A stretch of 64,000 bases of DNA, taken from contig CAZNKG010000009.1 of NCBI GenBank assembly GCA_964573635.1, forward strand, positions 20,656 to 84,655, written 5' to 3'. The stretch comes from an uncultured Desulfatibacillum sp. (lineage in GTDB: Bacteria; Desulfobacterota; Desulfobacteria; Desulfobacterales; SpSt-501). Positions 19,356 through 64,000 of this stretch are shown in pieces (position 1 is the first letter of the stretch; each line of letters starts with the position of its first letter). Below the pieces are notes generated by a model. That model was not told where the DNA came from. It ran no database searches and was given only the letters and a program-made list of their open reading frames with translations. Made by a program: the position numbers and the translations under genes.

Positions 19356-22300
19356 ATGCGGTCCGAACTGAATGGCGCTGCGGGCGAAAGCCGATCCGGC
19401 GCCGGCAGCCCGGAACCCATCGCGATTGTCGGGATCGGCTGCCGGTTCCCGGGCGCCTCCGGACCGGAGCGGTTCTTCGAGAACCTCTGCGCCGGAGAGG
19501 ATGCCGTGCGGGAGGTCCCGGCGGATCGATGGGATGTCGAGCGGCTGTTCGACCCGGACGGGTCGGCCCCCGGCCGCATGAATTCCCGGCACGGAGGCTT
19601 TCTGAGGGACGTTGATCAATTCGACTGGAAGGCGCTGCGCATCCCGCCCCGCGAAGCCAGTTTTCTCGACCCTCAGCAGCGGCTTCTGCTTGAGGTCGCC
19701 TGGGAGGCGTTCGAGGACGCCGGGCTGCCGCTCGAGTGGGTGGCCGGCAGCCGCACCGGGGTCTTTCTGGGGCTGATGTGGAACGATTTTTTGCGGCGGC
19801 TTTCGGCGCACCTCGAAAGTTTGAACGGGTATGCGCTGACCGGTAACATGTTCGCTTTCGCTCCCAATCGCATCTCCTTCTTTTTCGATTTGAAAGGCCC
19901 GAGCATGGCGGTGGATGCGGCCTGCGCCTCCTCGCTGGCCTGCCTGCAGGCCGCTTGCCTCAGTCTGTGGGCTGATGAATGCGACATGGCGCTTGTCGGC
20001 GGCGCCAGCCTGATGCTGCATCCGGATGCCGCCATCATGCTCTCCAAGGCCGGCGTGCTGTCGCCGCAAGGGGCCTGCCGGGCGCTGGACGCGTCGGCGG
20101 ACGGTTTCGTCCGCGGCGAGGGCGCCGGCGTTGTGGTGTTGAAGCCCCGCTCGAAAGTGAACGCCGCTGACCGGGTTTATGCCTATGTCCGCGGTGTCGC
20201 GGTCCGCCACAACGGCCGCAACGAGTGGATCATGGCGGCCAATGCGGCGGGGCAGTCCCGGACCCTCCGGGAAGCCTACCGCCGTGCCGGGGTCGATCCG
20301 TCGCAAGTGGATTACGTCGAGCTTCACGGCACCGGGCTCCTGAAAGGCGATGCGCTGGAGGTCGGCGTCTTGGGCGAGGTTCTCGGACGTTGTCCGGGCC
20401 GCCGCCATCCCTGCCGGGTGGGTTCCGTCAAAACCAACATCGGGCACCTGGAAGCCGCGGCGGGCATCGCCGGCCTCATCAAGGTGGCTCTTGCGCTGCA
20501 TCACGGGCAAATTCCTCCGACTCGGAATCTGCTGCGGGTTAACCCGGCTATCGATTTCGAAAATCTTGGCCTGCGGCCGCAGCTGACCCTGGGTCCGTGG
20601 CCTGAACGGCAGGGTCCGGCAGTGGCCGGAGTCAGCGCCATATCGATGTCCGGGGTGAACGCCCACGCGGTTCTGGAAGCGGTGCCCAACGCCCCCCCGG
20701 AAAGGGCTGCGGGCGGCCGAGAGGCCCCATCGCCCTATGTGCTGCCGATTTCCGCGCGCACGGCGGGCGCCTTGCGAAGGCAGGCGCAGGCGGTGGCCGA
20801 AGCGTTGCGCGCGGAAAATGGCGCCGGGGCCGGCGCGTTGAGTGACGTTTGTTTCACGGCCGCCGTGCGGCGCAGCCACCATGAATTCCGGACGGCGGTG
20901 GTGGGGGAAACCCGCGCTCAGCTGGCCGCGGCGCTGAGCCGTTGGCTCGAAAGCGAGCCTGTTCCCTCCGCGGCCGCTCACTCACCGCCGAGCGTGGTGT
21001 TTGTTTTCAGCGGCCGTGTTCCGGCCGATTGGCGTTTGAACCGGAGTCCGCTGCCGCGCGACGAGCTGTTCTGTTCCGTGGCCGAACGCTGCCGCCGGGT
21101 GCTTCGGGAAGGGTTCCGGCGCCCGGCGGCGGCCGGGGTGCCGCGCGATCCCTCCGGCCTCCGGCTCAAGGCGGTAGACCGGGCGCGTTGGGAGCTTGCG
21201 GCGGTCCAAATGGCGACCGTAGCGCTTTGGCTGTCGTGGGGGGTGACGCCTTCCGCCTGCCTGGTGTCACGCGCCGCCGCGGATGCAGCGGCGCGTCTCG
21301 ATGAACAAGTCGACCTCGAGGAGGAGATCCGCGTCTGTTTCGGATTGAACCCGGTGCAGTCGCGGGGCGGCGGCGCGGACGCCGGGCGGCCAGACCGGGA
21401 CCCGACAGCGGAACGCCTCTTCCCGGTGCGAAAAGAAACCCTCTTCCCGAAATTTGGGGCGCCGCGCATCGTCCTGTTCGAGGAGCCCCCCAGTGCCGAC
21501 GAAGGGGAGGCGGCGGGGGCGCCGCGGGCCGATCGCGCTGCGCTGGAAGCCGCTCTGGCGGCGTCTGTCGGGGAGCTGGGCGCCGATGCGGCCGCCCATT
21601 ATCTCGAAATCGGTCCACGCCTGCGCCTGTCCCGGCATCTCACGAACCTGCAGACCCGACAACGGATTGGGGGCCGCTGCCTCATGCCGGCATCCGCGGA
21701 GGCGGTTGACCGTCACCTGATGGTGCAAGCGCTGGCGCAGCTTTACCGGACGGGATGGCCTGTTCGTTGGAGCGGTTTTTATGCGCACGGAGGGCGCTGC
21801 GTGCATCTTCCCCCGTACCCGTGGGAGCGGGAGCGGCTGTGGCCGCCTTGTCTCGACGCCGAAGCGCGCGGCGGCCAAGCGCGGCCGGGCCGGCGGCTTG
21901 AAGGCCCGAATGCGGCCTCCGCGCCGCCGTCAACGGGGAACCAAGACGGTTCGGCGGCCGCGCCACAAAACCGGTCGGACGGCGGCGATCTCGGGATGAG
22001 TTCGGTGCGGACGCTTTCGGCCGCCTGGCGGAACACCCCCCGGACGGGGCCGCTGCGTCCGCTGCTGGTCGGGGTCCTGTCCTCTCACCTGATCGATATC
22101 CTCGGGTTTGAAAGGGGGGTGAGCCTGGATCCCCACCGGCGTTTGTTCGAATTGGGGATGAATTCCCTGGCCACGGTCGAACTCATGCGCCGCCTGGAGC
22201 TCGAAATCGGGCGACGTTTCCCGCCGACGCTCATCTTCGACTATCCGACCATCGACGGCTTGGCCGGCTGCCTGGAACGCGAGTTGTCGGACGGACCGGA

Positions 22301-53017: not shown

Positions 53018-53821
53018 TTAGGCCGTGAGCGGCGGCGCATTCTCGGCCGGGACCTCGATCTCCATCCCGTCCTCCAAACGGACGCCCAGGCGGTTGCAGG
53101 TGACGTTGAGGCGGACGACCTTGCCCGGACCGCTCGGGGTCCGGACCATGGTGCCGATCCGGGGGAGGTCCTTTTTCAGCTGCATGTAGGTGTCGTACTC
53201 GTACACGAGGCAGCACATGAGCCGGCCGCACTGGCCGGAGATCTTGGTCGGGTTGAGCGACAGGCCCTGCTCCTTGGCCATGCGGATGGACACCGGCTCG
53301 AATTTTCCGAGGTGGGCGGCGCAGCACAGCTCGCGCCCGCAGCGGCCGATCCCGCCGCACATCTTGGCCTGGTTGCGGATGCCGACCTGGCGCATCTCGA
53401 TGCGCCCGCCGAACTCCTTGACCAGCATCTTGAGCAGCTGGCGGAAGTCGACGCGCCCCTCGGCGGTGAAGAGGAAGGTGAGCTTGTTGCCCTCGAAGGA
53501 CTTCTCCACCGCGAAGAGGTTCATCTTGAGGTTGAGCTCCCGGATGCACCGGCGGCAGAAGGCGTAGGCGGTCCGTTCGTCTTCGGCATGGCGCGCGAGC
53601 TGCGCGAGGTCCTTGGGCGTCGCCAGGCGGTACACCTTGCGATAGGTCCGGTCCGCCGGCGGCTCCTCGAGGAGCCGCGGCGCGCTCGCGACGGTGCCCA
53701 GGCTCAGGCCCTGCTCGGTCTCGACGATGACGTGGTCTCCGGCATTGAGCACGAAGGCCCCGCAGTCGAAATCGTATATTTTTCCCGCCGGTTTGAAGCG
53801 GACCCCAACCAGTTTCACCAT
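53018..53821 (-). CDS. PSP1-domain protein (RicT/YaaT-like)
   Basis: MVKLVGVRFKPAGKIYDFDCG...; GRIEMRQVGIRNQAKMCGGIGRCGRELCC; GQCGRLMCCLVYEY. The upstream part of ORF 53018..54520 overlaps holB. Confidence 0.9.
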   Translation of the reverse strand: MVKLVGVRFKPAGKIYDFDCGAFVLNAGDHVIVETEQGLSLGTVASAPRLLEEPPADRTYRKVYRLATPKDLAQLARHAEDERTAYAFCRRCIRELNLKMNLFAVEKSFEGNKLTFLFTAEGRVDFRQLLKMLVKEFGGRIEMRQVGIRNQAKMCGGIGRCGRELCCAAHLGKFEPVSIRMAKEQGLSLNPTKISGQCGRLMCCLVYEYDTYMQLKKDLPRIGTMVRTPSGPGKVVRLNVTCNRLGVRLEDGMEIEVPAENAPPLTA

Positions 53822-54807
53822 GTCGCTGCCGCCGCTAAATTCTTTATCTTGACCAATAACGCCTCCAGTGTCAACCGCACGTTGCCGCGCGCCGCGATGC
53901 GGCGCCGGGCCTCCTCGAGGGCCGCGTAGGCCTGGACCGGGAAGTCGGGCGGCAGCCCCGCGGCGTCGGCCAGGATCTCCTCGCGGCGGTCCGGCCGGCC
54001 GATGCGGTCCGGATCGAGGCGCGCCACGGCGAGGTCGCGCAGCCAGAGGGCGATCAGCTCCAGGTCGGCGGGCGTCTCCTCGGGGTCGCGGGCGAGCCGT
54101 TCGGCCATGGCGAGCGCCCAGGCGGCCGGCTTCGGCCGCCGCGGGGAGAGCTCGGAGGCGATCCAATCGCGGCGCTCGAGGCGCCGCTTGGCCTTCAAGG
54201 CGAGCGCCTGCGTGACGCTCCCGCCGGCGATCTCCGCGGCGGCCTCGGCCTCCCGGGGCTCGAACCCGTAGGCGCGCTCGAGAATCGCCGCGAGGTGCCG
54301 GCGGGCGAGCGGCTTGAAGCGCAGGTGCTGGCAGCGGGAGACGATCGTCGGCAGGAGCTCCTCGGGCTGGCGCGCCGTCAGGATCAGCACGGTCTCTCCC
54401 GGCGGCTCCTCGAGCGTCTTCAACAGCGCGTTCGCCGCGGCCGGGTTGAGCGCGTGGGCCTCCGCGATGACGCCGACCCGCATGGGCGCCTCGTAGGGCC
54501 GCAGCGCCAGCACCCGGCAAAACTCCCGCACGGGCTCGATGCGGATCATCGCTCCCGCCGGCGCCAGCTGATGCACGTCGGGGTGCCGGCCGGCGGCGAT
54601 CTTGCGGCAGCCCGTGCAGCTCCCGCAGGGCCGCTCGCCGCCGCTTCCGCAGTTCAGCGCCATGGCGAAGGCGAGCGCCGCGGTTCGCTTGCCGACGCCC
54701 TCGGCGCCGGTGAAGAGCAGCGCCTGGGGGATGGCTCCGGTTTTCAGGTAGGATCGAAGGGTCCGGACCGGAATGTCCTGGTCGATGATGGCGTCGAATC
54801 CCGGCAC
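53815..54807 (-). CDS. holB: DNA polymerase III subunit delta'
   Basis: ALLFTGAEGVGKRTAALAFAMALNC...CGSCTGCRKIAAGRHPDV; NALLKTLEEPP. Confidence 0.9.
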   Translation of the reverse strand: MPGFDAIIDQDIPVRTLRSYLKTGAIPQALLFTGAEGVGKRTAALAFAMALNCGSGGERPCGSCTGCRKIAAGRHPDVHQLAPAGAMIRIEPVREFCRVLALRPYEAPMRVGVIAEAHALNPAAANALLKTLEEPPGETVLILTARQPEELLPTIVSRCQHLRFKPLARRHLAAILERAYGFEPREAEAAAEIAGGSVTQALALKAKRRLERRDWIASELSPRRPKPAAWALAMAERLARDPEETPADLELIALWLRDLAVARLDPDRIGRPDRREEILADAAGLPPDFPVQAYAALEEARRRIAARGNVRLTLEALLVKIKNLAAAATW

Positions 54808-54811
54808 GGAG

Positions 54812-55087
54812 CTATCGGTCGACCCGTTCCTTGAGTTCCTTGCCGGACTTGAAGAACGGCAGCTTCTTCGGCTTGATGATCACCTTCTCGCCGGTCTTGG
54901 GATTGCGTCCGGTGTACGTCTTGTAGCTCTTCACGAAAAAACTGCACAACCCCCGGATCTCGACACGCTCGCCTTGGGCCATGGCGTCGGCCATTTCATC
55001 GAAGAAGATCTGGACGACGCGGGCGGCTTCGGTCTTGGAGATGTTGGCTTCGGTTTTCAGTGCGGAGATCAATTCCAGCTTGTTCAT
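54812..55087 (-). CDS. HU/IHF-family DNA-binding protein (IHF beta-like)
   Basis: MNKLELISAL...GERVEIRGLCSFFVK...TGRNPKTGEKV...FKSGKELKERV. Confidence 0.9.
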   Translation of the reverse strand: MNKLELISALKTEANISKTEAARVVQIFFDEMADAMAQGERVEIRGLCSFFVKSYKTYTGRNPKTGEKVIIKPKKLPFFKSGKELKERVDR

Positions 55088-55134
55088 GCGGCCTCCTGCG
55101 GGGGTGCGGAAAAATCCTCGGCAACGACTCCTGG

Positions 55135-55163
55135 ACTATAGCCAAATCATGAAAAAATGTCAA
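55135..55163 (-). promoter_or_regulatory. Near-consensus sigma70-type promoter upstream of the IHF-like gene
   Basis: On the minus strand: TTGACA (55158-55163) - 17 nt - TATAGT (55135-55140), about 45 nt upstream of ATG 55087. Confidence 0.55.
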
Positions 55164-55167
55164 TCAG

Positions 55168-55704
55168 TTATGATAGAATGGGGGGCAAGCGCTCGATGTC
55201 CTCCTCCAGGACATCGACGCCGGCGAACTGCCCGAGAGCCTCGATGTTGACCACCACCCGCCCCTGGCCGCGGTAGCGCAGGAAGGTGCCCTTCACCCCG
55301 GCGAATGGACCGCTCACCACCAGAACGCGCTCGCCGGGCTGCAGCCGGTGGCCGGTGAAGACGGGCGCCTCGGCGGCGACCATGATCTTCAGGGAGTCGA
55401 CGGTCTGGTCGGCGACGGGCACCGGCCCGAGGTGGCTGCCGATCAGCTTCACCGCGCCGGCCGTCTTGACGATCTCCAGGTGGTGGTGCGGGTGCAGGTC
55501 GGTGCGGATGAAAAGATAGCCGGGGAAAAGCGGCACCTGGATCATGATCCGCCGGTCCCGCCGCCGGCTGGGCACCTTGACCTTCGGCAGGAAGACCTCG
55601 AGGGATTTGCGGTCGAGCTGGTCGGCGACGACGCTCTCGTGACGGCTGCGGGTGTGCAGCACGTACCACTGCCGCTTAAGGCGCTTGTCTTCCGTCGGTT
55701 CCAT
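55168..55704 (-). CDS. NusG-family paralog (NGN + KOW; RfaH/UpxY/TaA-like specialised antiterminator candidate)
   Basis: QWYVLHTRSRHESVVADQL...LFPGYLFI (NGN). GERVLVVSGPFAGVKGTFL (KOW). ATG 55704 preferred over TTG 55752. Confidence 0.75.
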   Translation of the reverse strand: MEPTEDKRLKRQWYVLHTRSRHESVVADQLDRKSLEVFLPKVKVPSRRRDRRIMIQVPLFPGYLFIRTDLHPHHHLEIVKTAGAVKLIGSHLGPVPVADQTVDSLKIMVAAEAPVFTGHRLQPGERVLVVSGPFAGVKGTFLRYRGQGRVVVNIEALGQFAGVDVLEEDIERLPPILS

Positions 55705-55758
55705 CGGCTGGCTGTCGATCCCTTCTTTTGCCCGCCCGGTCGCGCCCCGCAAAGAGCG

Positions 55759-58140
55759 CTAGAGGCCGAACTCCCCGATCCCGTAGAGGCGGATGCGGAC
55801 CCCGATCCCGGTGTCCTCGGAGCCGTCGCTGTAGAGCACCTCGATGCTCCAGCACTGGGTGCGGTAGTCGAACCCGATCCCGATCTGATTCGTCTCCTCC
55901 GCCTGGAAATCGTACTCGTATCGCGCCAGCAGGTTGAGGCGGTCGGTCAGCCCGAGGCGCAGCTCGGAGAACAGCGAGTTGATCTTGTTTTTCCGCGCCG
56001 AGGTGTCGAACTCGTCGATGTCGCGGCCGGTGGTCTCGATGTCGTCGTCGTCGCGGTTCTCGCGGTCGTAGCGGTACTCCACGACCAAGCGGTCGTTTTC
56101 GCGCGCCCGGAGGGTGAGCGCGGTGCTGTACTGGTCCACCTGGGTGTCGTGGACGTTGTACTGCGCGGTGCCGTCCAGGCTGACCCGCCACCCGGGGAGG
56201 AGGTCGATGCGGCCGGCGATCGGCGAGAACGGCTCCGCGTGCCGGGCGAAATCGTAGTACTGGGCGACCTTGATCCGCAAAAAGTCGCGGTAGTCGTAGT
56301 CGCGACCGTCGTCGATCGTCCCGCGGCGCTTCTCCTGGCGCGGGTGCGCCTCGGGATCCGGGGCCGCGCTCGAGGACTTGGCGGTGAAGGTGTTCGTCAA
56401 GGCGTAGCCGAGCCGGCTGCGGTTTTCGATGCGGTCGCGTGCGTCGATGTGCGGCAGGTTGTCCTGCGCCGCCTCGGGGACATAGGTGTGGAAGATCTCG
56501 GGGCGCACGGAATGCTTGACGCGCTCGATCTCCCCGCCGGCGACGTCGAAGACGCGGTAGATGTCCGTGAAGAGGGAGAGGCGCGTGTCGAAGAGCTCGC
56601 GGTGGAAGCGGCGGTCGTCCGACCAGGGGTTGTCGGCGTCGGCCCGGTACTGGTCCCAGAGGGTTTCGCGCAGCCCGACCGACGGCTCGAAGGTGAGATA
56701 CGGCGGCAGCGTGAGGGGGTAGTAAAACCGCGGCCACAGGTCCAGGCGCTGCACCCGCGCCCCCCGCTCCCGGTAAAAGTGGGTGTACTCGGAGAAGAGG
56801 TTGCTGTAGATCGACCCCTCCCCCAGGGGCTGTTTGGGGGCGTCGAAGATCACGACCGGGAGCTTGTGGGTGGATTCCTTCCAGTTCTGCCCCTTGCGGA
56901 CGTCGTCGTAGAACCGGTTCTCGGCGTTCAGGCCGAACGCCGACCAGGATTTGGACAGCAGCAGCCGGTTGACGCGCACCGGGTCGTTGTAATCGTCGAG
57001 CTCGCGGCCGAAGAACTTGTTGAAATAGCGCTGGGTATCCTCGAAGCCCATGTAGCCGGTCTTGAAATCCCGCAGGTAGTCCTGGTCGCTGGCCCGATCG
57101 AAGTCGAGTTTCGCGTCCACCCCGAAGGGCAGCGGCTGGTGGTGGCTCAGGCGCAGCCAGTAGCGGTCGCGGTTGGGGCGCAGGAACTCCCCGGACTCGT
57201 CCTCGTAGCCGTAGTCGCCGCTCGACCCCCCGCGGCCGTCGTCCACCTGGTCGTCGTGCAGGAAGTCGAACATCAGGGCGCCGCGCGCCTCGCGGGTGAG
57301 GAAGTAGCGGTATTCGACCCCCGGCCGCCACCCGCGCGCGCTCATGGCCTGGAGATAGAACGTGGCGTCGGAGTGCGGGTTGATCGCCCAGAAGAAGGGC
57401 TGGCTCCAGCTCGCGCCCTTCTTCTCGTAGTAGCCGAACTGGGGCATCAGCAGGCCGGTCTGGCGGCCGCGCGCCGGAAACCGGATGTAAGGGAAATAAC
57501 CGACCGGCAGGTCGCGGGCGTAGAGCGTCGCGTTCCACGCCGAGCCGGCGCCGTCCTCGCGCAGGTTCACGTCGCTGCCGGCGATCCGCCAGTCGGGCCG
57601 CTCGCCGTCGCAGGTGGTGATGGTCGCCCGGTCGATCCAGTAGGTCTCGGCGCCGGTTTTCTGGATGAGGTTTCCCTGGATGTGGTAGTTGTTTTCGCGG
57701 ATGAAGATCAGCCCGTTGTCGAGCGTCCCGAGCTCGCTGTCGAGATCGATCTCCAGGGTGTCGCCGGTCAAGCGGTCCTCGCCCGCCGCCACCACCACGC
57801 GGCCCTCGGCGTAGGCCATCATCGTCCGGCGGTTCAGGCGCATGAAGTCGGCCGTGATGCTGCGCCCCTGCTTGCTGATCACCACCCGCCCCTCGGCCTG
57901 GTACTCGTCGAGGGCCTCGTCATAGCGGATGCGGTCGGCCTCGATGTCCCAGGGCACGCCGGGGTCGGAGGGGAAGCTGCGGGCCCCGCCGGCCTGGATG
58001 TCGATCGCCGCGGCCGGCGGCGCCAGGGCGGCAAGGGCGGCGAGGGCGGCGAGCAGCAGCAGGGCGAACGCCGCGAGGCGCCGTCCGGGCCGGTCGACCC
58101 CGCTTGCTGCAACCGATCGCTCCTCACCGCCTGTCGCCAT
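55759..58140 (-). CDS. lptD: LPS-assembly outer-membrane protein LptD
   Basis: Signal peptide AAFALLLLAALAALAALAPPAAA. OstA-like N-terminal repeats (YQAEGRVVISKQGRSITADFM...AYAEGRVVV). Large beta-barrel rich in alternating aromatic residues. Confidence 0.9.
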   Translation of the reverse strand: MATGGEERSVAASGVDRPGRRLAAFALLLLAALAALAALAPPAAAIDIQAGGARSFPSDPGVPWDIEADRIRYDEALDEYQAEGRVVISKQGRSITADFMRLNRRTMMAYAEGRVVVAAGEDRLTGDTLEIDLDSELGTLDNGLIFIRENNYHIQGNLIQKTGAETYWIDRATITTCDGERPDWRIAGSDVNLREDGAGSAWNATLYARDLPVGYFPYIRFPARGRQTGLLMPQFGYYEKKGASWSQPFFWAINPHSDATFYLQAMSARGWRPGVEYRYFLTREARGALMFDFLHDDQVDDGRGGSSGDYGYEDESGEFLRPNRDRYWLRLSHHQPLPFGVDAKLDFDRASDQDYLRDFKTGYMGFEDTQRYFNKFFGRELDDYNDPVRVNRLLLSKSWSAFGLNAENRFYDDVRKGQNWKESTHKLPVVIFDAPKQPLGEGSIYSNLFSEYTHFYRERGARVQRLDLWPRFYYPLTLPPYLTFEPSVGLRETLWDQYRADADNPWSDDRRFHRELFDTRLSLFTDIYRVFDVAGGEIERVKHSVRPEIFHTYVPEAAQDNLPHIDARDRIENRSRLGYALTNTFTAKSSSAAPDPEAHPRQEKRRGTIDDGRDYDYRDFLRIKVAQYYDFARHAEPFSPIAGRIDLLPGWRVSLDGTAQYNVHDTQVDQYSTALTLRARENDRLVVEYRYDRENRDDDDIETTGRDIDEFDTSARKNKINSLFSELRLGLTDRLNLLARYEYDFQAEETNQIGIGFDYRTQCWSIEVLYSDGSEDTGIGVRIRLYGIGEFGL

Positions 58141-58219
58141 TCGGGCCGCCGCCTCGCAATCCCGGATGAGGCGCGCCCCGGGTTGCCGATCCCGCCGGGC
58201 GCGCGCGCATCCGGCGGTC

Positions 58220-58248
58220 TTGAACCTCGCCGGGAGTTAAGCTATAAA
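58220..58248 (+). promoter_or_regulatory. Candidate sigma70-type promoter upstream of surE
   Basis: TTGAAC (58220-58225) - 17 nt - TATAAA (58243-58248), 34 nt before ATG 58282. Confidence 0.45.
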
Positions 58249-58281
58249 GCCAATTTGATTGTAAAAGTCAAGCGACGGGCC

Positions 58282-59055
58282 ATGCACATTCTGCTGACGA
58301 ACGACGACGGCATCCACGCCCCGGGTCTGGGGGCCCTGCACGCGGCCCTCGGGCGGCGCCACCGCGTGACGGTGGTCGCCCCCGACCGCGAGCGGACCGC
58401 CGTCGGCCACGGGATCACGCTCGACCGGCCGCTGCGCGCCGCGGCCGTGAGTCTGAACGGCGGCGGGCCGGGGTTCGCCGTCAACGGCACCCCCGCCGAC
58501 TGCGTGAAGCTCGCGCTCCTGGAGATCCTGGAGGGGCGGCCCGATCTGGTGGTCGCGGGCCTGAACGCCGGGGCGAACGTCGGAGTGAACATCGCCTATT
58601 CGGGGACCGTCGCCGCCGCCAAGGAGGCGGCCTTCGCGCGGATCCCGGCGATCGCCGCCTCGATCGACGGGCGCGAGCCCTATCCCTTCGAGGCGGCCGC
58701 GGAGTTCATCGCGCACCTGTCGGAAATCGTTCTGGCGCGCGGGCTGCCCCCCGGGAGCTTTCTCAACGTGAACTTCCCCAACCGGCGCCGCGAGGAGATC
58801 GCCGGGGTGCGCGTGAGCCGCCACGGGCTCGCGGCTTTCGCGGAGTACGTGGAGAAGCGGGTCGATCCGCGCAACCGGGTCTACTACTGGCAGGGCGCCG
58901 ACATGCAGGCCTTCGACGAGGACCTCGACGTCGACGGCGGGGCGCTCAAGCTCGGGTTCATCACCGTGACGCCGATCACCTGCGACGCGACCGACTACCG
59001 GATGCTCGAGGACCTCAAGCGCTGGGCGCTCGACGCGCCGTCGCGGGAGGGGTGA
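58282..59055 (+). CDS. surE: 5'/3'-nucleotidase SurE
   Basis: MHILLTNDDGIHAPGL...; GTPADCV; NAGANVG; YSGTVAAA. Only the last 258 codons of ORF 55348..59055 are real. Confidence 0.95.
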   Translation: MHILLTNDDGIHAPGLGALHAALGRRHRVTVVAPDRERTAVGHGITLDRPLRAAAVSLNGGGPGFAVNGTPADCVKLALLEILEGRPDLVVAGLNAGANVGVNIAYSGTVAAAKEAAFARIPAIAASIDGREPYPFEAAAEFIAHLSEIVLARGLPPGSFLNVNFPNRRREEIAGVRVSRHGLAAFAEYVEKRVDPRNRVYYWQGADMQAFDEDLDVDGGALKLGFITVTPITCDATDYRMLEDLKRWALDAPSREG

Positions 59056-59061
59056 GCCTCG

Positions 59062-59703
59062 ATGTTCATCACCTTCGAAGGCGGCGAGGGGGCCGGGAAA
59101 ACCACCCAGATCGCCCGGCTCGCCCGGGCGCTGGCGGACCGCGGCCGCGCCTGCCTGACGACGCGCGAGCCCGGAGGGACGCCGCTCGGCCAAAGGATCC
59201 GCGCGCTGCTCCTCGACCCGCAAAGCGACGGCATCTCCCCCCGGGCCGAGCTGCTGCTCTACATGGCCGACCGCGCCGAGCACATCGCCGCGGTGATCGC
59301 CCCGGCGCTCCAGCGGGGCGAGGTGGTGCTCTGCGACCGCTTTTTCGACGCGACGGTCGTCTACCAGGGGGTCGGCCGGGGCCTCACGGCCGACCGGGTC
59401 CGCGAGCTCCACGGCGCCCTTTTCGGAGGGCTTCTCCCCGATGTGACGATCCTGCTGGACCTCCCCCCGGCCGTCGGGCTTTCGCGGGCCGCGCGGCAGC
59501 TCGCCGCCGGCGGCCGCAGCGCCGCCGAGGGCCGCTTCGAGTCCGAGGCGCTCGCCTTTCACGAGCAGGTGCGCGACGGCTACCTCGCGCTCGCCCGCCG
59601 CGAGCCCGGCCGCTTCCGCGTCATCGACGCCGCCCAGAGCGAGGCGGCCGTGGCGGCGGCGGTCCTCGCGGCCGTCGAGGCCGCCCTGAAGGCGGCCGCA
59701 TGA
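59062..59703 (+). CDS. tmk: Thymidylate kinase
   Basis: MFITFEGGEGAGKTTQ...; TREPGGT; DRF. Confidence 0.95.
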   Translation: MFITFEGGEGAGKTTQIARLARALADRGRACLTTREPGGTPLGQRIRALLLDPQSDGISPRAELLLYMADRAEHIAAVIAPALQRGEVVLCDRFFDATVVYQGVGRGLTADRVRELHGALFGGLLPDVTILLDLPPAVGLSRAARQLAAGGRSAAEGRFESEALAFHEQVRDGYLALARREPGRFRVIDAAQSEAAVAAAVLAAVEAALKAAA

Positions 59704-61937
59704 CCCCCGGGACCTCGCTGCTCGACGCGATCGGCAACACCCCGCTGGTGGAGATCCGCCGGATGAACCCCAACCCGCGGGTCCGGCTCTACGCCAAGCT
59801 CGAATACCTGAACCCGGGCGGGTCGATCAAGGACCGGCCGGCCCGGTTCATGATCGAGGCGGCCGAGAGGTCGGGCGAGCTCACCGCCGGGAAGACCGTC
59901 GTCGAGGCGACCAGCGGCAACACGGGGATCGGGCTGGCGCTCGTCTGCGCGGTCAAGGGCTACCGCCTGCTGCTCGCCATGTCGGAGTCGGTCAGCCTCG
60001 AGCGCCGCCGGATCCTCAAGGCCCGCGGGGCGGAGATCATGCTCACCCCCGGGCACCTCGGCACCGACGGGGCGATCGAGGAGGTCTACCGCCTGGCGCG
60101 CGAAAACCCGGAGCGCTACTTCGTCGTCGACCAGTTCAACAACCCGGCCAACTGGCAGGCGCACTACTTCGGCACCGCCGAGGAGATCTGGCGCCAGACC
60201 GAGGGCCGCCTGGACGTCTTCGTCGCGGCCATGGGGACGACCGGGACCCTGATGGGGGCCTCGCGGCGGCTGAAGGAGCTCGACCCGCGCATCGCGATCG
60301 TCGGGGTCGAGCCCTACCTCGGCCACAAGCTCCAGGGGCTGAAGAACCTCAAGGAGGCTTACTGCCCCGAGATCTTCGAGAAAAGCCGCCTGGACCGCAA
60401 GGTCAACATCGCCGACGAGGAGGCGTTCGACACGGCCAGGCGGCTGGCGCGCGAGGAGGGGCTGCTCGTCGGGATGAGCAGCGGCGCCGCCATGGCGGCG
60501 GCCGTGAAGGAGGCCGCGCGGCTCGAGGAGGGGGTGGTGGTCGTGGTCCTGCCCGACGGCGGGGAGCGCTACCTGAGCACCCCGCTCTTCGGCGCTCCGG
60601 AAAAGCTCCCCGTGAACCTGTTCAACTTCGACGGGCGCCGCCGCCAGCCGCTCGAGCCGGCGCGCCCCGACACCGTCGCCGTCTACACCTGCGGCTCCCA
60701 TGCGGGGCGGCCGCTGCGCCTGGGGGAGCTTAGGCGCTTTCTCCTCGCCGATGTGCTCGTGCGCTACCTGCGCTTTCGCGGGTTTTCCGTCAAGCACGTC
60801 GTCGACATCCCGGATGTGGACGACTCCCCGCCCGGCGCCGCCTCCGAAAACGGCGCGGGGCCGCTGCACCCCGAGCTGGCGGACCTCGGCGTCCGCCCGG
60901 CCGATGCCTACCTGCGCGCCGCCGACCGCCTCGAGGAGATGGTGGCGGCCGCCGAGCGGCTGGCCGCCAAGGGGGCGGCCTACGAGAAGCTGCGCTCGCT
61001 CTATTTCGACCTGTCCAAGACGAGCGGCTACGGGCGGCTCTCCGGGGTCGATGCCGCCAAGGTCCGGGTGGGGGCGACGATCGATCTCGAAAACTTCGAG
61101 AAGGCGAACCCCCGCGACTTCGCCCTGCTCAAGCGCTGCCGGCTCTCGGAGCTCAAGCGCGGCCTCTTCGTGAAGAGCCCCTGGGGAAACGTGCGGCCCG
61201 CCTGGCACCTGCAGACCGCGGCCATGGTCCTGAACAGCCTCGGCGGCCCGGCCGACGTCCACATCTCCAGCCGCGAGCTCGTCTTTCCGCACCACGAGAA
61301 CGAGAACGCGATTGCGGCCGCCCTGACCGGCAAGCCCTTCGCCCGCATCTGGGTGCTCTGCGACCGCGTGCGCGCCCCGGCGGAGTCGCTCGCCGAGCTC
61401 AGCGCGCAGGGCTTTTCCGGCCGCGAGATCCGCTTCGGGCTGCTCGCGGCCCATTACCGCAAGCCGGCGCACTGCTCCGCCGAGCGCCTGACCGATGCGC
61501 GCCGCGCCCTCGAGCGGCTCGACCGCTGCGTCGCCGCGCTCGCGGCGCCGCCGGCCGGGGGGGAGCCCGCCGCGGAGGTCGACCAGCTGGTTTACGACCT
61601 GCGCGCGGGCGTCTGCGACGCGCTGGACGACGACCTCGACCTGCCGGCGGCGACCGCCGCGCTTTTCCGGGCCGTCAAGCGGATCAACGCGCTCGCCGCC
61701 TCCGGCCGGCTCGAGGCCCTGGGGGCGGGGCGGCTGCTCGCGGCCTTCCGCGAGATCGACGGCGTGCTCGCGGTGTTCGACTTCGGCTCCCCGCAGCCAC
61801 TCGACGCCGAGGTCCAAGCGCTCATCGAGCGGCGCCGCCAGGCGCGTGCGGCGCGGGACTGGGCGCTCGCCGACCGGCTGCGGGAGGAGCTCAAGCGCCG
61901 CGGCGTCGCGGTGCGGGACGAGAAACTCGCCCGGTGA
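59700..61937 (+). CDS. Fusion protein: cysteine synthase (CysK/CysM-like, PLP) + cysteinyl-tRNA-synthetase-like domain lacking HIGH and KMSKS
   Basis: N-terminal half: NPGGSIKDRPA, TSGNTGIGLA, MGTTGT, SSGAAMAAA. C-terminal half: VAVYTCGS..RLGE (60717-60728 in place of HIGH), LRFRGFSVKHV, PAWHLQTAAM, FPHHENE, DDDLDLP, ERRRQARAARDWALADRLREELKRRGV. ATGA overlap with tmk. Confidence 0.8.
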   Translation: MTPGTSLLDAIGNTPLVEIRRMNPNPRVRLYAKLEYLNPGGSIKDRPARFMIEAAERSGELTAGKTVVEATSGNTGIGLALVCAVKGYRLLLAMSESVSLERRRILKARGAEIMLTPGHLGTDGAIEEVYRLARENPERYFVVDQFNNPANWQAHYFGTAEEIWRQTEGRLDVFVAAMGTTGTLMGASRRLKELDPRIAIVGVEPYLGHKLQGLKNLKEAYCPEIFEKSRLDRKVNIADEEAFDTARRLAREEGLLVGMSSGAAMAAAVKEAARLEEGVVVVVLPDGGERYLSTPLFGAPEKLPVNLFNFDGRRRQPLEPARPDTVAVYTCGSHAGRPLRLGELRRFLLADVLVRYLRFRGFSVKHVVDIPDVDDSPPGAASENGAGPLHPELADLGVRPADAYLRAADRLEEMVAAAERLAAKGAAYEKLRSLYFDLSKTSGYGRLSGVDAAKVRVGATIDLENFEKANPRDFALLKRCRLSELKRGLFVKSPWGNVRPAWHLQTAAMVLNSLGGPADVHISSRELVFPHHENENAIAAALTGKPFARIWVLCDRVRAPAESLAELSAQGFSGREIRFGLLAAHYRKPAHCSAERLTDARRALERLDRCVAALAAPPAGGEPAAEVDQLVYDLRAGVCDALDDDLDLPAATAALFRAVKRINALAASGRLEALGAGRLLAAFREIDGVLAVFDFGSPQPLDAEVQALIERRRQARAARDWALADRLREELKRRGVAVRDEKLAR

Positions 61938-61949
61938 CGGCCGGGCGCC

Positions 61950-62948
61950 TTGCGAATCGAGGAGCGGATGCCGGCGATCTATTTTCCGCAGACATACGTG
62001 ACGCCCGAGGCGGCCGCGGCGCTCGGCCGGTTTTTCCCCCGGCTCATCGGCTACCGGCCGGACGACGGGGAGCTGCCCCCGGAGATGGCGGCGCTGCGTT
62101 CGGGCGGCGCCTGGGAGTTCATCGCCCCCCCTCCGGGAACCGCGGGCAGGCTGGCGGCCGCCGCCGCGGAGTTCCGCCGCTTCGGCGAGCTCCACCGGGA
62201 CGGGGCCGGCGCGCGGGCGCTCGCGGCGCTAGGCGAGGGGGCAGGCTTCGAAGCGGAATCCGAGGAGCGGATCGCCGCGGAGATCCGGCGGCGCATCCGG
62301 CCGCCGGGCGGCCCGGAGGAGGACCCCGCGCTCTTCGCCGCCCGCCTCTTTCTGCACCTCGCCGAGGAGTACGACCGCGGGCGGGGCGCGCTGGCGCGCG
62401 AGCTCGCGCGCCATGCGGAGCTCTCCGCGCTGCTGGAAGAGGCTCTCGGCGCGGAGCCCCTGCCGGATGCGCCGCGCCCCGAACCGCTCCCGGCGGACGG
62501 CCCCCTGCCGGCGGACGGCGGCGAGCTCTGCCGCCGGCGCCTGCGGGCCTGGTCGCGGGTCTTCCTGAGCCGGCCGGCTCCGGGCCCCCTGCTCTGCACC
62601 TGCGACGCGCAGGTGCCCGAGGTGTTGATGGACGCGCTGCCGCAGGCCCGGTTCCTCGCGGCCGACCTCGCTCGGGCGGTTCCCGAGGCCGGAAGCGGCC
62701 GCGACCCCGGCGAACGGCTGATGGCGATCGCCGCCGCGAGCGCCGAGGAGCTCGTCCGCGAGTTCGGCTTCGGGGCGCCGGAGCGGCCGCTTGGCCCCGA
62801 TTCCGGCGGGGCGCGGTTGTGGGTCGTCGCCGGGGTGGCCCCCGCCGATCTCTGCGGGCGGCTCGCCGGGGCCCCGCCGGCGGCGGCCGGCGGGAGGGGC
62901 GCGGCGCACGCGCTGATTGCGCTGGTGGACCCGGCGCAGGGGCGCTGA
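61950..62948 (+). CDS. Hypothetical Ala/Arg/Pro-rich protein
   Basis: This is the most protein-like of several overlapping high-GC ORFs here (mixed hydrophobic/acidic composition). It starts 13 nt after the CysK fusion gene. No motif recognised. Confidence 0.45.
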   Translation: MRIEERMPAIYFPQTYVTPEAAAALGRFFPRLIGYRPDDGELPPEMAALRSGGAWEFIAPPPGTAGRLAAAAAEFRRFGELHRDGAGARALAALGEGAGFEAESEERIAAEIRRRIRPPGGPEEDPALFAARLFLHLAEEYDRGRGALARELARHAELSALLEEALGAEPLPDAPRPEPLPADGPLPADGGELCRRRLRAWSRVFLSRPAPGPLLCTCDAQVPEVLMDALPQARFLAADLARAVPEAGSGRDPGERLMAIAAASAEELVREFGFGAPERPLGPDSGGARLWVVAGVAPADLCGRLAGAPPAAAGGRGAAHALIALVDPAQGR

Positions 62949-63030
62949 CGGTCACAATATTCTGATTTAAAAGATTTAATTGCTTTCATGGCCTTGCCGT
63001 GCCCCCGCTTCAGAAAAAAATGAACAAGGC

Positions 63031-63058
63031 TTGACTCGCCTTTTTTTTATGGTATATG
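63031..63058 (+). promoter_or_regulatory. Candidate sigma70-type promoter upstream of the ferredoxin gene
   Basis: TTGACT (63031-63036) - 16 nt T-rich spacer - TATATG (63053-63058), in an AT-rich spacer. AAAGGAGAA Shine-Dalgarno sequence before ATG 63130. Confidence 0.35.
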
Positions 63059-63129
63059 GACTCAGCCGGAAACGGACGAACTGGCGCCATGCCACGACCG
63101 AATAACTATTCGAAAGGAGAAGCCCTGAG

Positions 63130-63318
63130 ATGGCGTTCAACCCCACGGTAGACGAAGAGAAGTGCGCAGGCTGCGAGGAGTGCGTGGATGTTTGCCCGGT
63201 CGAGGTCTTCGAGATGCAGGACGGGAAATCGGTCCCGGTGAATGCGGAGGAGTGCCTCGGCTGCGAGAGCTGCGTCGAAGTCTGCTCGGAAGGCGCGATC
63301 ACGGTCGAGGAGACCTGA
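63130..63318 (+). CDS. 2x[4Fe-4S] ferredoxin (62 aa)
   Basis: CAGCEECVDVCP and CLGCESCVEVC cluster motifs. Confidence 0.9.
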   Translation: MAFNPTVDEEKCAGCEECVDVCPVEVFEMQDGKSVPVNAEECLGCESCVEVCSEGAITVEET

Positions 63319-63340
63319 TCGGAGGCCTTTTTAGGTTTCT

Positions 63341-63378
63341 CCGGCCGGCCCGCGACACCGGGCCGGCCGGTTTTTTTT
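63341..63378 (+). terminator. Rho-independent terminator after the ferredoxin gene
   Basis: Perfect 12-bp stem CCGGCCGGCCCG / CGGGCCGGCCGG with 6-nt loop (63353-63358), followed by T8 (63371-63378). Confidence 0.8.
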
Positions 63379-63464
63379 CCTGCCTGCCGCGCGGCTCCCC
63401 GTCCGCCTCCCCCGGTTAAGATACGTCTTGCGCGCCACAACACGTTGTGTTACTTATTGAAGAC

Positions 63465-63797
63465 ATGAAACAATATGTTGTTGATCAGCTGCGCTACGGC
63501 GATTTCGAGAAGCTGAAAGGCTATCTCGACCAGCAGTACGGGTCGGCCGCGATGCCGGGGGTCTACTGGGTTCCGGTCGATGCCGGCCGCCTCTCCCCGG
63601 TCCAGGCCGAGCACCGCGACTGCCAGCCGTTTTACGCGGCGATCCAGCTGGAGGAGACCTCGCTGTCGATGGAGCTCTTGGTGCGCACCAAGAACCGCGT
63701 CCGCTGCGGGTGCATCGCCTACGCGACGGAAGGCCAGCGGGCCTGGATGATGGACCTGGTGGACGGGATCCTTTCGCGGCTGGAGATCTCCGTCTGA
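63465..63797 (+). CDS. Hypothetical protein (110 aa)
   Basis: MKQYVVDQLRYGDFEKLKGYLDQQYG... has a balanced, protein-like composition. No motif recognised. Palindrome CACAACacGTTGTG (63436-63449) lies just upstream. Confidence 0.55.
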   Translation: MKQYVVDQLRYGDFEKLKGYLDQQYGSAAMPGVYWVPVDAGRLSPVQAEHRDCQPFYAAIQLEETSLSMELLVRTKNRVRCGCIAYATEGQRAWMMDLVDGILSRLEISV

Positions 63798-63844
63798 CCC
63801 GCCGGCACGGCGGGGGACCTTGTGGCGACCGGGTGAAGCAAGGC

Positions 63845-64000
63845 ATGGCGGCCGCGATCCGAACGGGGGCCCTGGTGCTCTGGGTGGTCGCCGCGACGTT
63901 CGTGCTCGGCGTCGCCGCGATCGGGGTGTCCTGCTTCTCGAAATCCGGCAACGGCGTGCATCGCATCGCCCGGATCTGGGGCCGGTCCATCCTGGCGGTG
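63845..64000 (+). CDS. Start of a membrane-anchored protein, possibly a PlsC-type lysophospholipid acyltransferase (3' end outside window)
   Basis: MAAAIRTGALVLWVVAATFVLGVAAIGVSCF...HRIARIWGRSILAV resembles acyltransferase N-termini. Only 52 codons are visible. Confidence 0.3.
   Translation, partial: MAAAIRTGALVLWVVAATFVLGVAAIGVSCFSKSGNGVHRIARIWGRSILAV

Follow-up and report, generated by a model that had tools for sequence, protein, structure and literature searches.

A conserved fusion of a cysteine synthase with a cysteinyl-tRNA synthetase-like domain lacking ATP-site motifs in Desulfobacterota

The fused gene and its cysteine synthase half

A 64,000-nucleotide stretch of DNA from an uncultured Desulfatibacillum sp. 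of the Desulfobacterota (GenBank assembly GCA_964573635.1, contig CAZNKG010000009.1, forward-strand positions 20,656 to 84,655), referred to here as the window, carries on its plus strand, at 59700-61937, a gene in which a pyridoxal phosphate (PLP)-dependent cysteine synthase is joined to a body that resembles cysteinyl-tRNA synthetase (CysRS). The gene consists of a single open frame of 745 codons whose translation is free of stops, and its 745-residue product contains four Pfam domains, in the order PALP (amino acids (aa) 8-286, E 6e-75), tRNA-synt_1e (aa 319-601, E 8e-46), DALR_2 (aa 638-693) and CysS_C (aa 701-742), a layout that is also found in its homologues. These correspond to a CysM/CysK-type PLP cysteine synthase domain (59721-60557, also matched by TIGR01136), a CysRS-like Rossmann/CP domain whose ATP site has been destroyed (60654-61502), a DALR-type helical domain with a DDDLD motif in which D348 and D349 are conserved (61611-61778), and a CysRS anticodon-binding domain (61800-61925), all on the plus strand. 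The CysRS-like body spans aa 306-742, its N-terminal strand starting at approximately aa 306, and the linker between the two halves measures about 8 residues; the interdomain segment (aa 293-305; 60576-60614, plus strand) is modelled as disordered.

The ATG at 59700 overlaps the stop codon of tmk, the thymidylate kinase gene (59062-59703, plus strand; Pfam Thymidylate_kin, E 1.5e-47), in the form ATGA, and the N-terminus that it defines agrees with the start of the family consensus. The coordinates and motifs assigned to the fusion in a preliminary description, made from the sequence letters, hold up against translation, alignment to PDB 1LI5 and mapping of the motif positions, and the sequence agrees with the tmk overlap given there. 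The same description had considered that the junction might be an assembly artefact joining two separate genes; this is ruled out by the occurrence of the same fused frame in many other genomes, both among database relatives and in a sample of the phylum described below. A fold model of the whole protein reaches a predicted template-modelling score (pTM) of 0.58, with a predicted local confidence (pLDDT) below 50 for linker residues 293-301; the relative orientation of the two halves is not fixed by this model, which cannot discriminate among the functional readings discussed here.

The first 300 residues score 370.9 bits against the NCBIfam cysKM model (TIGR01136), above its cut-off of 344.15. 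The CysK/CysM hallmarks listed in the preliminary description, GGSIKDR, TSGNTG, MGTTGT and SSGAA, could all be located, starting at aa 40, 71, 178 and 260; the PLP-binding lysine K44 lies within GGSIKDR (59817-59837) and the asparagine loop is formed by TSGNTG (59910-59927); a glycine-rich phosphate loop and the serine at PLP N1 are likewise present. In an alignment of 76 family members, these catalytic motifs are invariant or nearly so. The closest solved structures are O-acetylserine sulfhydrylases, namely Mycobacterium CysK1 (E 4e-80) and E. coli CysM (E 4e-75), and the loop at aa 208-226 is some 7 residues shorter than in Mycobacterium CysK1, which we take to be the CysM form. The fusion resembles the CysM/CysK sulfhydrylases (TIGR01136; PDB 2Q3B, 2V03, 2BHS) in its PLP-binding lysine, asparagine loop, GTTGT and SSGA motifs and short CysM-like loop; it differs from them in bearing a 445-residue C-terminal pseudo-synthetase and in falling under the equivalog cut-offs of both cysM (358 versus 394 bits) and cysK (329 versus 351 bits). 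In two genomes of the same order, one of which is 98% complete, the fusion is the sole match to the CysK/M family at E 1e-40 or better, which argues that its PLP half is a working enzyme. Together with the preserved motifs, this makes it very probable that the PLP half functions in cysteine synthesis.

ATP site and tRNA-recognition surface of the CysRS-like half

The synthetase-like half was examined in an alignment of 136 sequences, comprising 121 fusion halves, 14 stand-alone CysRS of the same order and E. coli CysS, whose numbering is used below. The half encoded in the window aligns to residues 3-451 of E. coli CysRS (PDB 1LI5) with E 9e-55 and is matched end to end by the NCBIfam cysS model (TIGR00435), yet its score of 217.7 bits lies well under the cut-off of 340. 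The HIGH signature (H37-H40) has been replaced by RLGE at 60717-60728, as the preliminary description had proposed and as alignment to 1LI5 confirms; among the 121 members, position 40, which corresponds to the second histidine, is occupied by glutamate in 112, aspartate in 8 and valine in 1. The absence of the KMSKS region, placed in the same description at about 61350-61440, is borne out as a deletion at aa 562/563, where a gap of approximately 9-11 columns opens with respect both to canonical CysRS and to loop-bearing relatives of the fusion (aa 559-563, 61374-61388, plus strand, with APAE before the gap and S after it). The loop has been deleted in 46-48 of the 121 members and reads GKKVDEQ or similar in the others. 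In the WHIEC motif, which reads WHLQT at 61203-61217, W205 and H206 are kept, E208 has become glutamine, and the zinc-ligand cysteine C209, as had been noted, has become threonine.

Several changes in the window's fusion go beyond that earlier list. The ATP-site motif H224-GGGSD reads H-ISSRE, and across the 121 members G226/G227 are mostly SS and D229 mostly glutamate; in addition, T68 is replaced by proline and K73IIK76 by SPPG. HIGH, KMSKS and the GGG/D229 motif are gone from 121 of the 121 family members, and neither HIGH nor KMSKS in a functional form was recovered when the CysRS-like half was searched by hidden Markov model (HMM) and by multiple alignment, the analyses that might have overturned the proposed loss. 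With these three elements lost, it is almost certain that the half can neither make Cys-AMP nor charge tRNA; the earlier suggestion that it does not adenylate cysteine in the canonical way is thus supported. Other positions that are invariant in canonical enzymes have been exchanged for different residues that are themselves near-invariant (R168T, G190S, G201V, G204S, E208Q, Q241I, S242A). Since these swapped positions are so well kept, and since the fusion halves form one clade (support 1.0), the half is under selection in its present state rather than decaying.

It could nevertheless be argued that the half might act as a cysteinyl-tRNA synthetase even now, or as an ATP-dependent cysteine ligase of the MshC kind, working with non-canonical motifs. 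The alignment to CysRS over its full length would be compatible with this, as would the cysteine--tRNA ligase label that many relatives bear and the scores of their halves, at or near the model cut-off. Such an activity is hardly credible, given that all three ATP motifs have disappeared together, that an acidic residue stands in place of the second histidine, that the cysS score falls so far below the cut-off, and that a canonical cysS is present in the genome. The MshC-like 'novel ligase' raised in the preliminary description fares no better, as no ATP site is left and the MshC model (TIGR03447) scores 110.3 bits on the fusion against a cut-off of 485.1. MshC, an ATP-dependent Cys:GlcN-Ins ligase, does offer the likeness of a CysRS-derived paralogue whose zinc/cysteine pocket is used outside translation; in contrast, MshC adenylates and is devoid of an anticodon domain, and the fusion displays the reverse combination, with no ATP site and the anticodon domain kept.

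The tRNA-recognition residues present a different picture from the ATP motifs. Residues R712, R716, W721, D725, R728 and D740 of the fusion correspond to E. coli R423, R427, W432, D436, R439 and D451, of which R423, R427, D436, R439 and D451 are kept in all 121 members, W432 being tryptophan in 112 and phenylalanine in 9. R427, D436 and W432 are direct contacts to the anticodon base G34 of tRNA-Cys, and R423 takes part in the surrounding hydration network (PMC12684709, PMC13449415). Also kept in 121 of 121 are G29, R42, D48, K175, D180, F181, W205, H234, H235, N237, R290 and D349, whereas Y298 and R299 each have a single exception among the 121. Much of the scaffold that binds tRNA is thereby preserved. 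The CysRS-like half combines a destroyed ATP site with a preserved surface for anticodon recognition. The preliminary view that tRNA-Cys might still be bound is plausible in light of the invariant G34-contact residues, and the half has probably retained this capacity.

The fate of the cysteine pocket is more mixed. The earlier suggestion that cysteine or a thiol could still be accommodated stands as far as C28, H234 and E238 are concerned, the latter two within FPHHENE (61284-61304, plus strand), and fails at C209, which is threonine in the window's fusion. Over the family, C28 is found in 87% of members, C209 in 45% and E238 in 77%, and the zinc-ligand pattern is CTHE in 44 of the 121, CCHE in 36 and something else in the remaining 41.

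These pocket residues bear on the proposal that the half is a sensor of free cysteine only, which would feedback-inhibit the synthase from the residual zinc site and have no role for tRNA. HisZ, a dead paralogue of histidyl-tRNA synthetase (HisRS) that regulates HisG, provides a precedent in that it binds histidine as an amino-acid sensor, and the invariance of W205, H234, H235, N237 and G29, along with the frequent retention of C28 and E238, would be in keeping with a cysteine site. The proposal leaves unexplained, however, why the anticodon residues should be invariant in 121 of 121 members beside a T68, a C209 and an E238 that vary, and in the window's own copy T68 is proline and C209 threonine. 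A role confined to free cysteine is decidedly unlikely.

Family, distribution and a linked downstream gene

All 120 of the 120 best database relatives share the four-domain layout, at identities of 58-99%, and those that are named belong to Desulfobacterales or Thermodesulfobacteriota. Their annotation is either "cysteine synthase" or "cysteinyl-tRNA synthetase", and the latter label is explained by the fact that several fusion halves of the same order score 341-376 bits on the cysS model, over its cut-off of 340. Many members of the family are hence labelled "cysteine--tRNA ligase", some of them over the NCBIfam threshold despite lacking every ATP motif, and the number of CysRS genes that automatic annotation assigns to Desulfobacterota is inflated as a result. 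An in-frame TGA in the fusion genes of two relatives was considered as a possible selenocysteine codon and turned out to be the true stop at the gene end. In the search of the literature, no description of a CysK/CysM-CysRS fusion was found.

Phylogenetic analysis separates the fusion halves from stand-alone CysRS with a support of 1.0 and a stem of 0.92 substitutions per site, and two subtypes can be recognized among them. Subtype A carries the GKKVDEQ-like loop, T68, K73 and usually C209. In subtype B the loop has been deleted, C209 is replaced by threonine in 45 of 48 sequences, and neither T68 nor K73 remains; of these 48 subtype-B sequences, 46 group together in a single clade (support 0.999). 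The window's fusion is of subtype B and lies on a long branch, with a depth of 1.29 versus a mean of 0.81, and its cysS score of 218 bits compares with 335-376 in other fusions of the same order. It belongs to a further-eroded, derived subclade.

The erosion of this lineage, and the faster evolution of the CysRS-like half in general (mean pairwise identity 0.58, versus 0.79 for the PLP half), are what would be expected if the half were a structural relic that serves the folding, oligomerization or solubility of the synthase and binds no ligand. Against such a role, the residues of the RNA-recognition surface are invariant across a clade of approximately 0.8 substitutions per site, and a module of 440 residues has been retained in about 40% of the phylum genomes sampled. 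A relic of this kind is very unlikely.

The phylogenetic distribution, whose examination had been recommended at the outset, was obtained from 400 genomes sampled evenly across the phylum: a full-length fused match (best E < 1e-130) occurs in approximately 155-160 of them, the remainder having separate genes only. Within the order, 24 of 26 distinct genomes carry the fusion. The family is large, and conserved in bacteria of the sulfate-reducer type.

The fusion adds to the ordinary cysteine machinery and does not replace it, because canonical genes for both activities are present in the genome, as the preliminary description had asked to be ascertained, and stand-alone copies are usual in the order. 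The canonical cysS lies at C1:39953-41329 (421.5 bits, with HIGN and KMAKS) and the canonical cysK at C1:434469-435359 (443.8 bits), adjoining a cysE-like gene. In the order sample, stand-alone CysRS is present in 13 of 14 genomes and stand-alone cysK over the cut-off in 11 of 14. A third CysK-family match, at C6:77940-78863 on the minus strand, scores 259 bits, under the cut-off. A tRNA-dependent route of cysteine synthesis through SepRS and SepCysS was rejected, since the search of the genome for SepRS gave a best sepS match of 27.5 bits against a cut-off of 380. The genome has two tRNA-Cys(GCA) genes that differ clearly from each other, at C7:1-75 and C32:15482-15553, and U73 is present in each.

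Downstream of the fusion, an open reading frame begins approximately 13 nucleotides past the stop codon (TTG at 61950), the distance given in the preliminary description; translation probably starts from the ATG at 61968. What had been described there as an unrecognizable Ala/Arg-rich frame is a member of a conserved family linked to the fusion, here called gene X, read as 61968-62948 on the plus strand and encoding 326 residues that belong to no known family. Its product aligns with that of the gene following the fusion in contigs L018 and L019, to which it is homologous, and with genes in 16 further genomes. A word-indexed homology search with X retrieved 2 relatives only, and an X profile collected 1728 representative clusters from a library of 1.84 billion proteins; no family match was obtained against Pfam and NCBIfam. 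The fold model is confident (pLDDT 82, pTM 0.81), and a Foldseek comparison with the PDB yielded nothing at E 0.001 or better, a shape search of the ESM Atlas nothing above a TM of 0.36, and a feature search of the Atlas nothing. A wide VIA-align search showed a weak, recurring likeness (Z 3.5-4.6, best 4.6) to nucleotide-binding domains of the HUP class, namely nicotinamide and nicotinic acid mononucleotide (NMN/NaMN) adenylyltransferases, PanC, PP-loop and ETF proteins, and this likeness, at a best Z of 4.6, is too weak for a HUP-class fold to be named. No cysteine or histidine is conserved in X.

The association between X and the fusion was followed in a test of 80 genomes, which are related to one another, so that the result is to be read as a pattern and not as a statistic. 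X is present in 29 of the 43 fusion-bearing genomes, and the 37 genomes lacking the fusion gave two weak matches only (E 1e-7 and 1e-8). It adjoins the fusion in 10 of the 29 genomes that hold both, in one case upstream rather than downstream, and also in L018, L019 and one further contig; in one relative a single codon separates the stop of the fusion from the start of X. Where it does not adjoin the fusion (L030-L032, L051), X is the gene immediately 5' of carA and is transcribed away from glnS, a GlnRS/GluRS-type synthetase gene. The idea that X tracks the loop-deleted subtype was rejected, as it follows fusions of both subtypes. These observations identify X, from its sequence relatives and positions, as a real conserved gene linked to the fusion, and it contributes a large unnamed family of some 1,700 representative clusters, for which the model is confident yet resembles no recognizable fold and this link is the sole functional clue.

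The existence of a conserved partner gene next to the fusion lends some weight to an alternative in which the CysRS-like half uses Cys-tRNA-Cys as a substrate or cargo, gripping it by the anticodon and, at the zinc site, by the cysteinyl group, and presenting, protecting or modifying it, for example by persulfidation or some other thiol chemistry in a cell rich in sulfide, possibly with the PLP domain or X. In addition, the anticodon contacts do not vary, even the eroded subclade retains three zinc ligands under selection (CTHE, 44 of 121), and the positions of the former active site carry new conserved residues and not random ones; class-I-like enzymes that use aminoacyl-tRNA without ATP motifs, the cyclodipeptide synthases, are known (PMC2922099). 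Set against these points are the variability of C209, E238 and C28 within the family, which leaves the thiol pocket not universally intact; the PLP domain's carboxylate-binding asparagine loop, typical of enzymes that act on free amino acids; and the lack, in X, of conserved Cys or His. No set of catalytic residues can be named for a new reaction, and the alternative is unlikely. Also rather unlikely is a reading in which the fusion and X would make up a tRNA-Cys-linked system not known before, at work in anaerobes of sulfide-rich settings. In it, tRNA-Cys or Cys-tRNA-Cys would be held by the dead CysRS at a repurposed zinc site, so that either the charged-tRNA pool could feed back directly on cysteine synthesis or a new chemistry on tRNA-bound cysteine could take place.

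A possible link to tRNA-Cys charging, and the surrounding genes

The reading tentatively preferred here, although it falls a little short of an even chance, is that of a working CysM-type cysteine synthase to which a non-charging pseudo-CysRS is permanently fused as a sensor or tether that binds tRNA-Cys. The dead half would still dock tRNA-Cys through the anticodon-binding domain that it has kept, and the residual zinc pocket could possibly hold the cysteinyl moiety of cysteine or of Cys-tRNA-Cys. Docking, or occupancy of the pocket, would then tune or localize the synthase attached through the short linker, and cysteine output would in this way track the charging state of tRNA-Cys, a logic borrowed from the HisRS-like domain of GCN2 and from HisZ. 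The fusion is predicted to be co-transcribed with tmk and usually with X, which may act as an accessory partner. Taken on its own, the step by which tRNA binding serves to regulate or tether the synthase is possible, and is put forward with reserve. Sensing or channelling had already been raised in the preliminary description; sequence alone cannot settle between such roles, and we infer them.

Several considerations weigh against this sensor or tether. The sensing of tRNA is inferred wholly from conservation, and as the arrangement of the two halves is not confidently modelled (pTM 0.58), no allosteric path can be traced between them. The cysteine pocket is further eroded in the window's copy and its subclade (C209T, T68P), which weakens a cysteine-binding role. 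The gene is placed in a constitutive housekeeping operon (surE-tmk) and not in a sulfur regulon. Furthermore, cysteine synthesis is classically controlled at CysE and not at the sulfhydrylase, so that a regulator attached to CysM would be unusual.

If the dead half does sense tRNA-Cys, a bacterial enzyme of amino-acid biosynthesis would be wired directly to the charging state of the cognate tRNA. To our knowledge, GCN2 and HisZ are the main examples of such wiring, and neither cysteine nor any class I synthetase has so far provided one. In GCN2, the HisRS-like domain is a catalytically dead synthetase paralogue that binds uncharged tRNA and is coupled to a kinase (PMC4335047). The synthetase half of the fusion resembles GCN2 and HisZ in having lost its catalytic motifs while retaining determinants of tRNA binding; it differs in the synthetase class and the amino acid concerned, and in that the partner is the cognate amino-acid biosynthetic enzyme, carried on the same polypeptide.

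With canonical CysRS (E. coli CysS, PDB 1LI5/1U0B; TIGR00435), the half has in common its domain order and length, the G34-contact residues, W205, H234 and E238. It is distinguished by the absence of HIGH, KMSKS and GGG/D229, by C209T and T68P, by a score under the cut-off, by its position behind a PLP enzyme and by forming a long-stemmed clade of its own. CARS/CysRS has been reported to act as a PLP-dependent cysteine persulfide synthase, with K73, K76, K266 and K269 as the lysines that hold PLP (Akaike et al. 2017, PMC5660078). The fusion is similar in linking a CysRS body to PLP chemistry on cysteine; in contrast, K73 and K76 are missing from it (SPPG), K266 and K269 fall in the deleted loop, and PLP belongs to a separate domain of fold type II. 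A CARS-type persulfide synthase working by the published mechanism is ruled out by the absence of these four lysines.

A further non-canonical CysRS paralogue of the same bacterial group is CysRS* of Desulfobacterales (Mukai et al., cited in PMC9437257), which keeps HIGH and KMSKS and has no anticodon domain. The fusion is its mirror image, having lost the motifs and kept the anticodon domain. The genome likely carries a copy of CysRS* as well as the fusion: on the minus strand of C15 (53963-57119), outside the window, a gene resembling tRNA-SeC (57028-57119), a divergent SelB-like gene that scores 108 bits versus a cut-off of 242, and a CysRS paralogue are arranged in a row, the last with HIGH and KMAKS intact, without an anticodon-binding domain, and matching only profile positions 5-378 with 379 bits. 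This trio matches the CysRS*/SelB*/SelC* system for cysteine at UGA described in some Desulfobacterales (PMC9437257). A second, ordinary tRNA-SeC gene is located at C29:39102-39199. The fusion is a new example of the pseudo-synthetase theme, its function being deduced; the present analysis contributes its division into subtypes, a tree with a single origin, counts of its distribution, its conserved operon and gene X.

The operon in which the fusion resides recurs in unrelated contigs, with the order lptD (on the opposite strand), surE, in some cases a gene with OB-fold and HD domains, tmk and the fusion. The tmk gene stands directly 5' of the fusion in the unrelated contigs L016-L019 and in the contig of relative P0191, and surE is found upstream of tmk in L018 and L019, as it is in the window, where it occupies 58288-59055 on the plus strand (start approximate; Pfam SurE, E 7e-58, at aa 981-1162 of the open frame 55348-59055). 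The gene that combines an OB-fold (tRNA_anti-codon) with an HD domain encodes approximately 320 residues and lies between surE and tmk in L016, L019 and L050; it is absent from the window and from L018. A gene with a PSP1 domain is present at 53018-54520 on the minus strand, and in relatives the same block extends further, to holB, HU, a NusG-like gene, lptD and metG. From the conservation of this block it follows that the fusion is embedded in a conserved housekeeping neighbourhood. A scan of 55000-64000 against Rfam returned no family, and a tRNA scan of the window returned none.

Beyond X, at 63130-63318 on the plus strand, lies a gene for a 62-residue 2x[4Fe-4S] ferredoxin, recognized through tblastn matches to the ferredoxins that follow X in L018 and L019, where Fer4 Pfam matches are also found. 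A ferredoxin gene is thus placed after X in three distant genomes, the copy in the window being 89% and 87% identical to those of L018 and L019, respectively. This identity of 87-89% between distant genomes contrasts with that of the neighbouring X, which is only 25-31%, and the ferredoxin gene sits in a local dip of G+C content (0.58 at 63000-63499).

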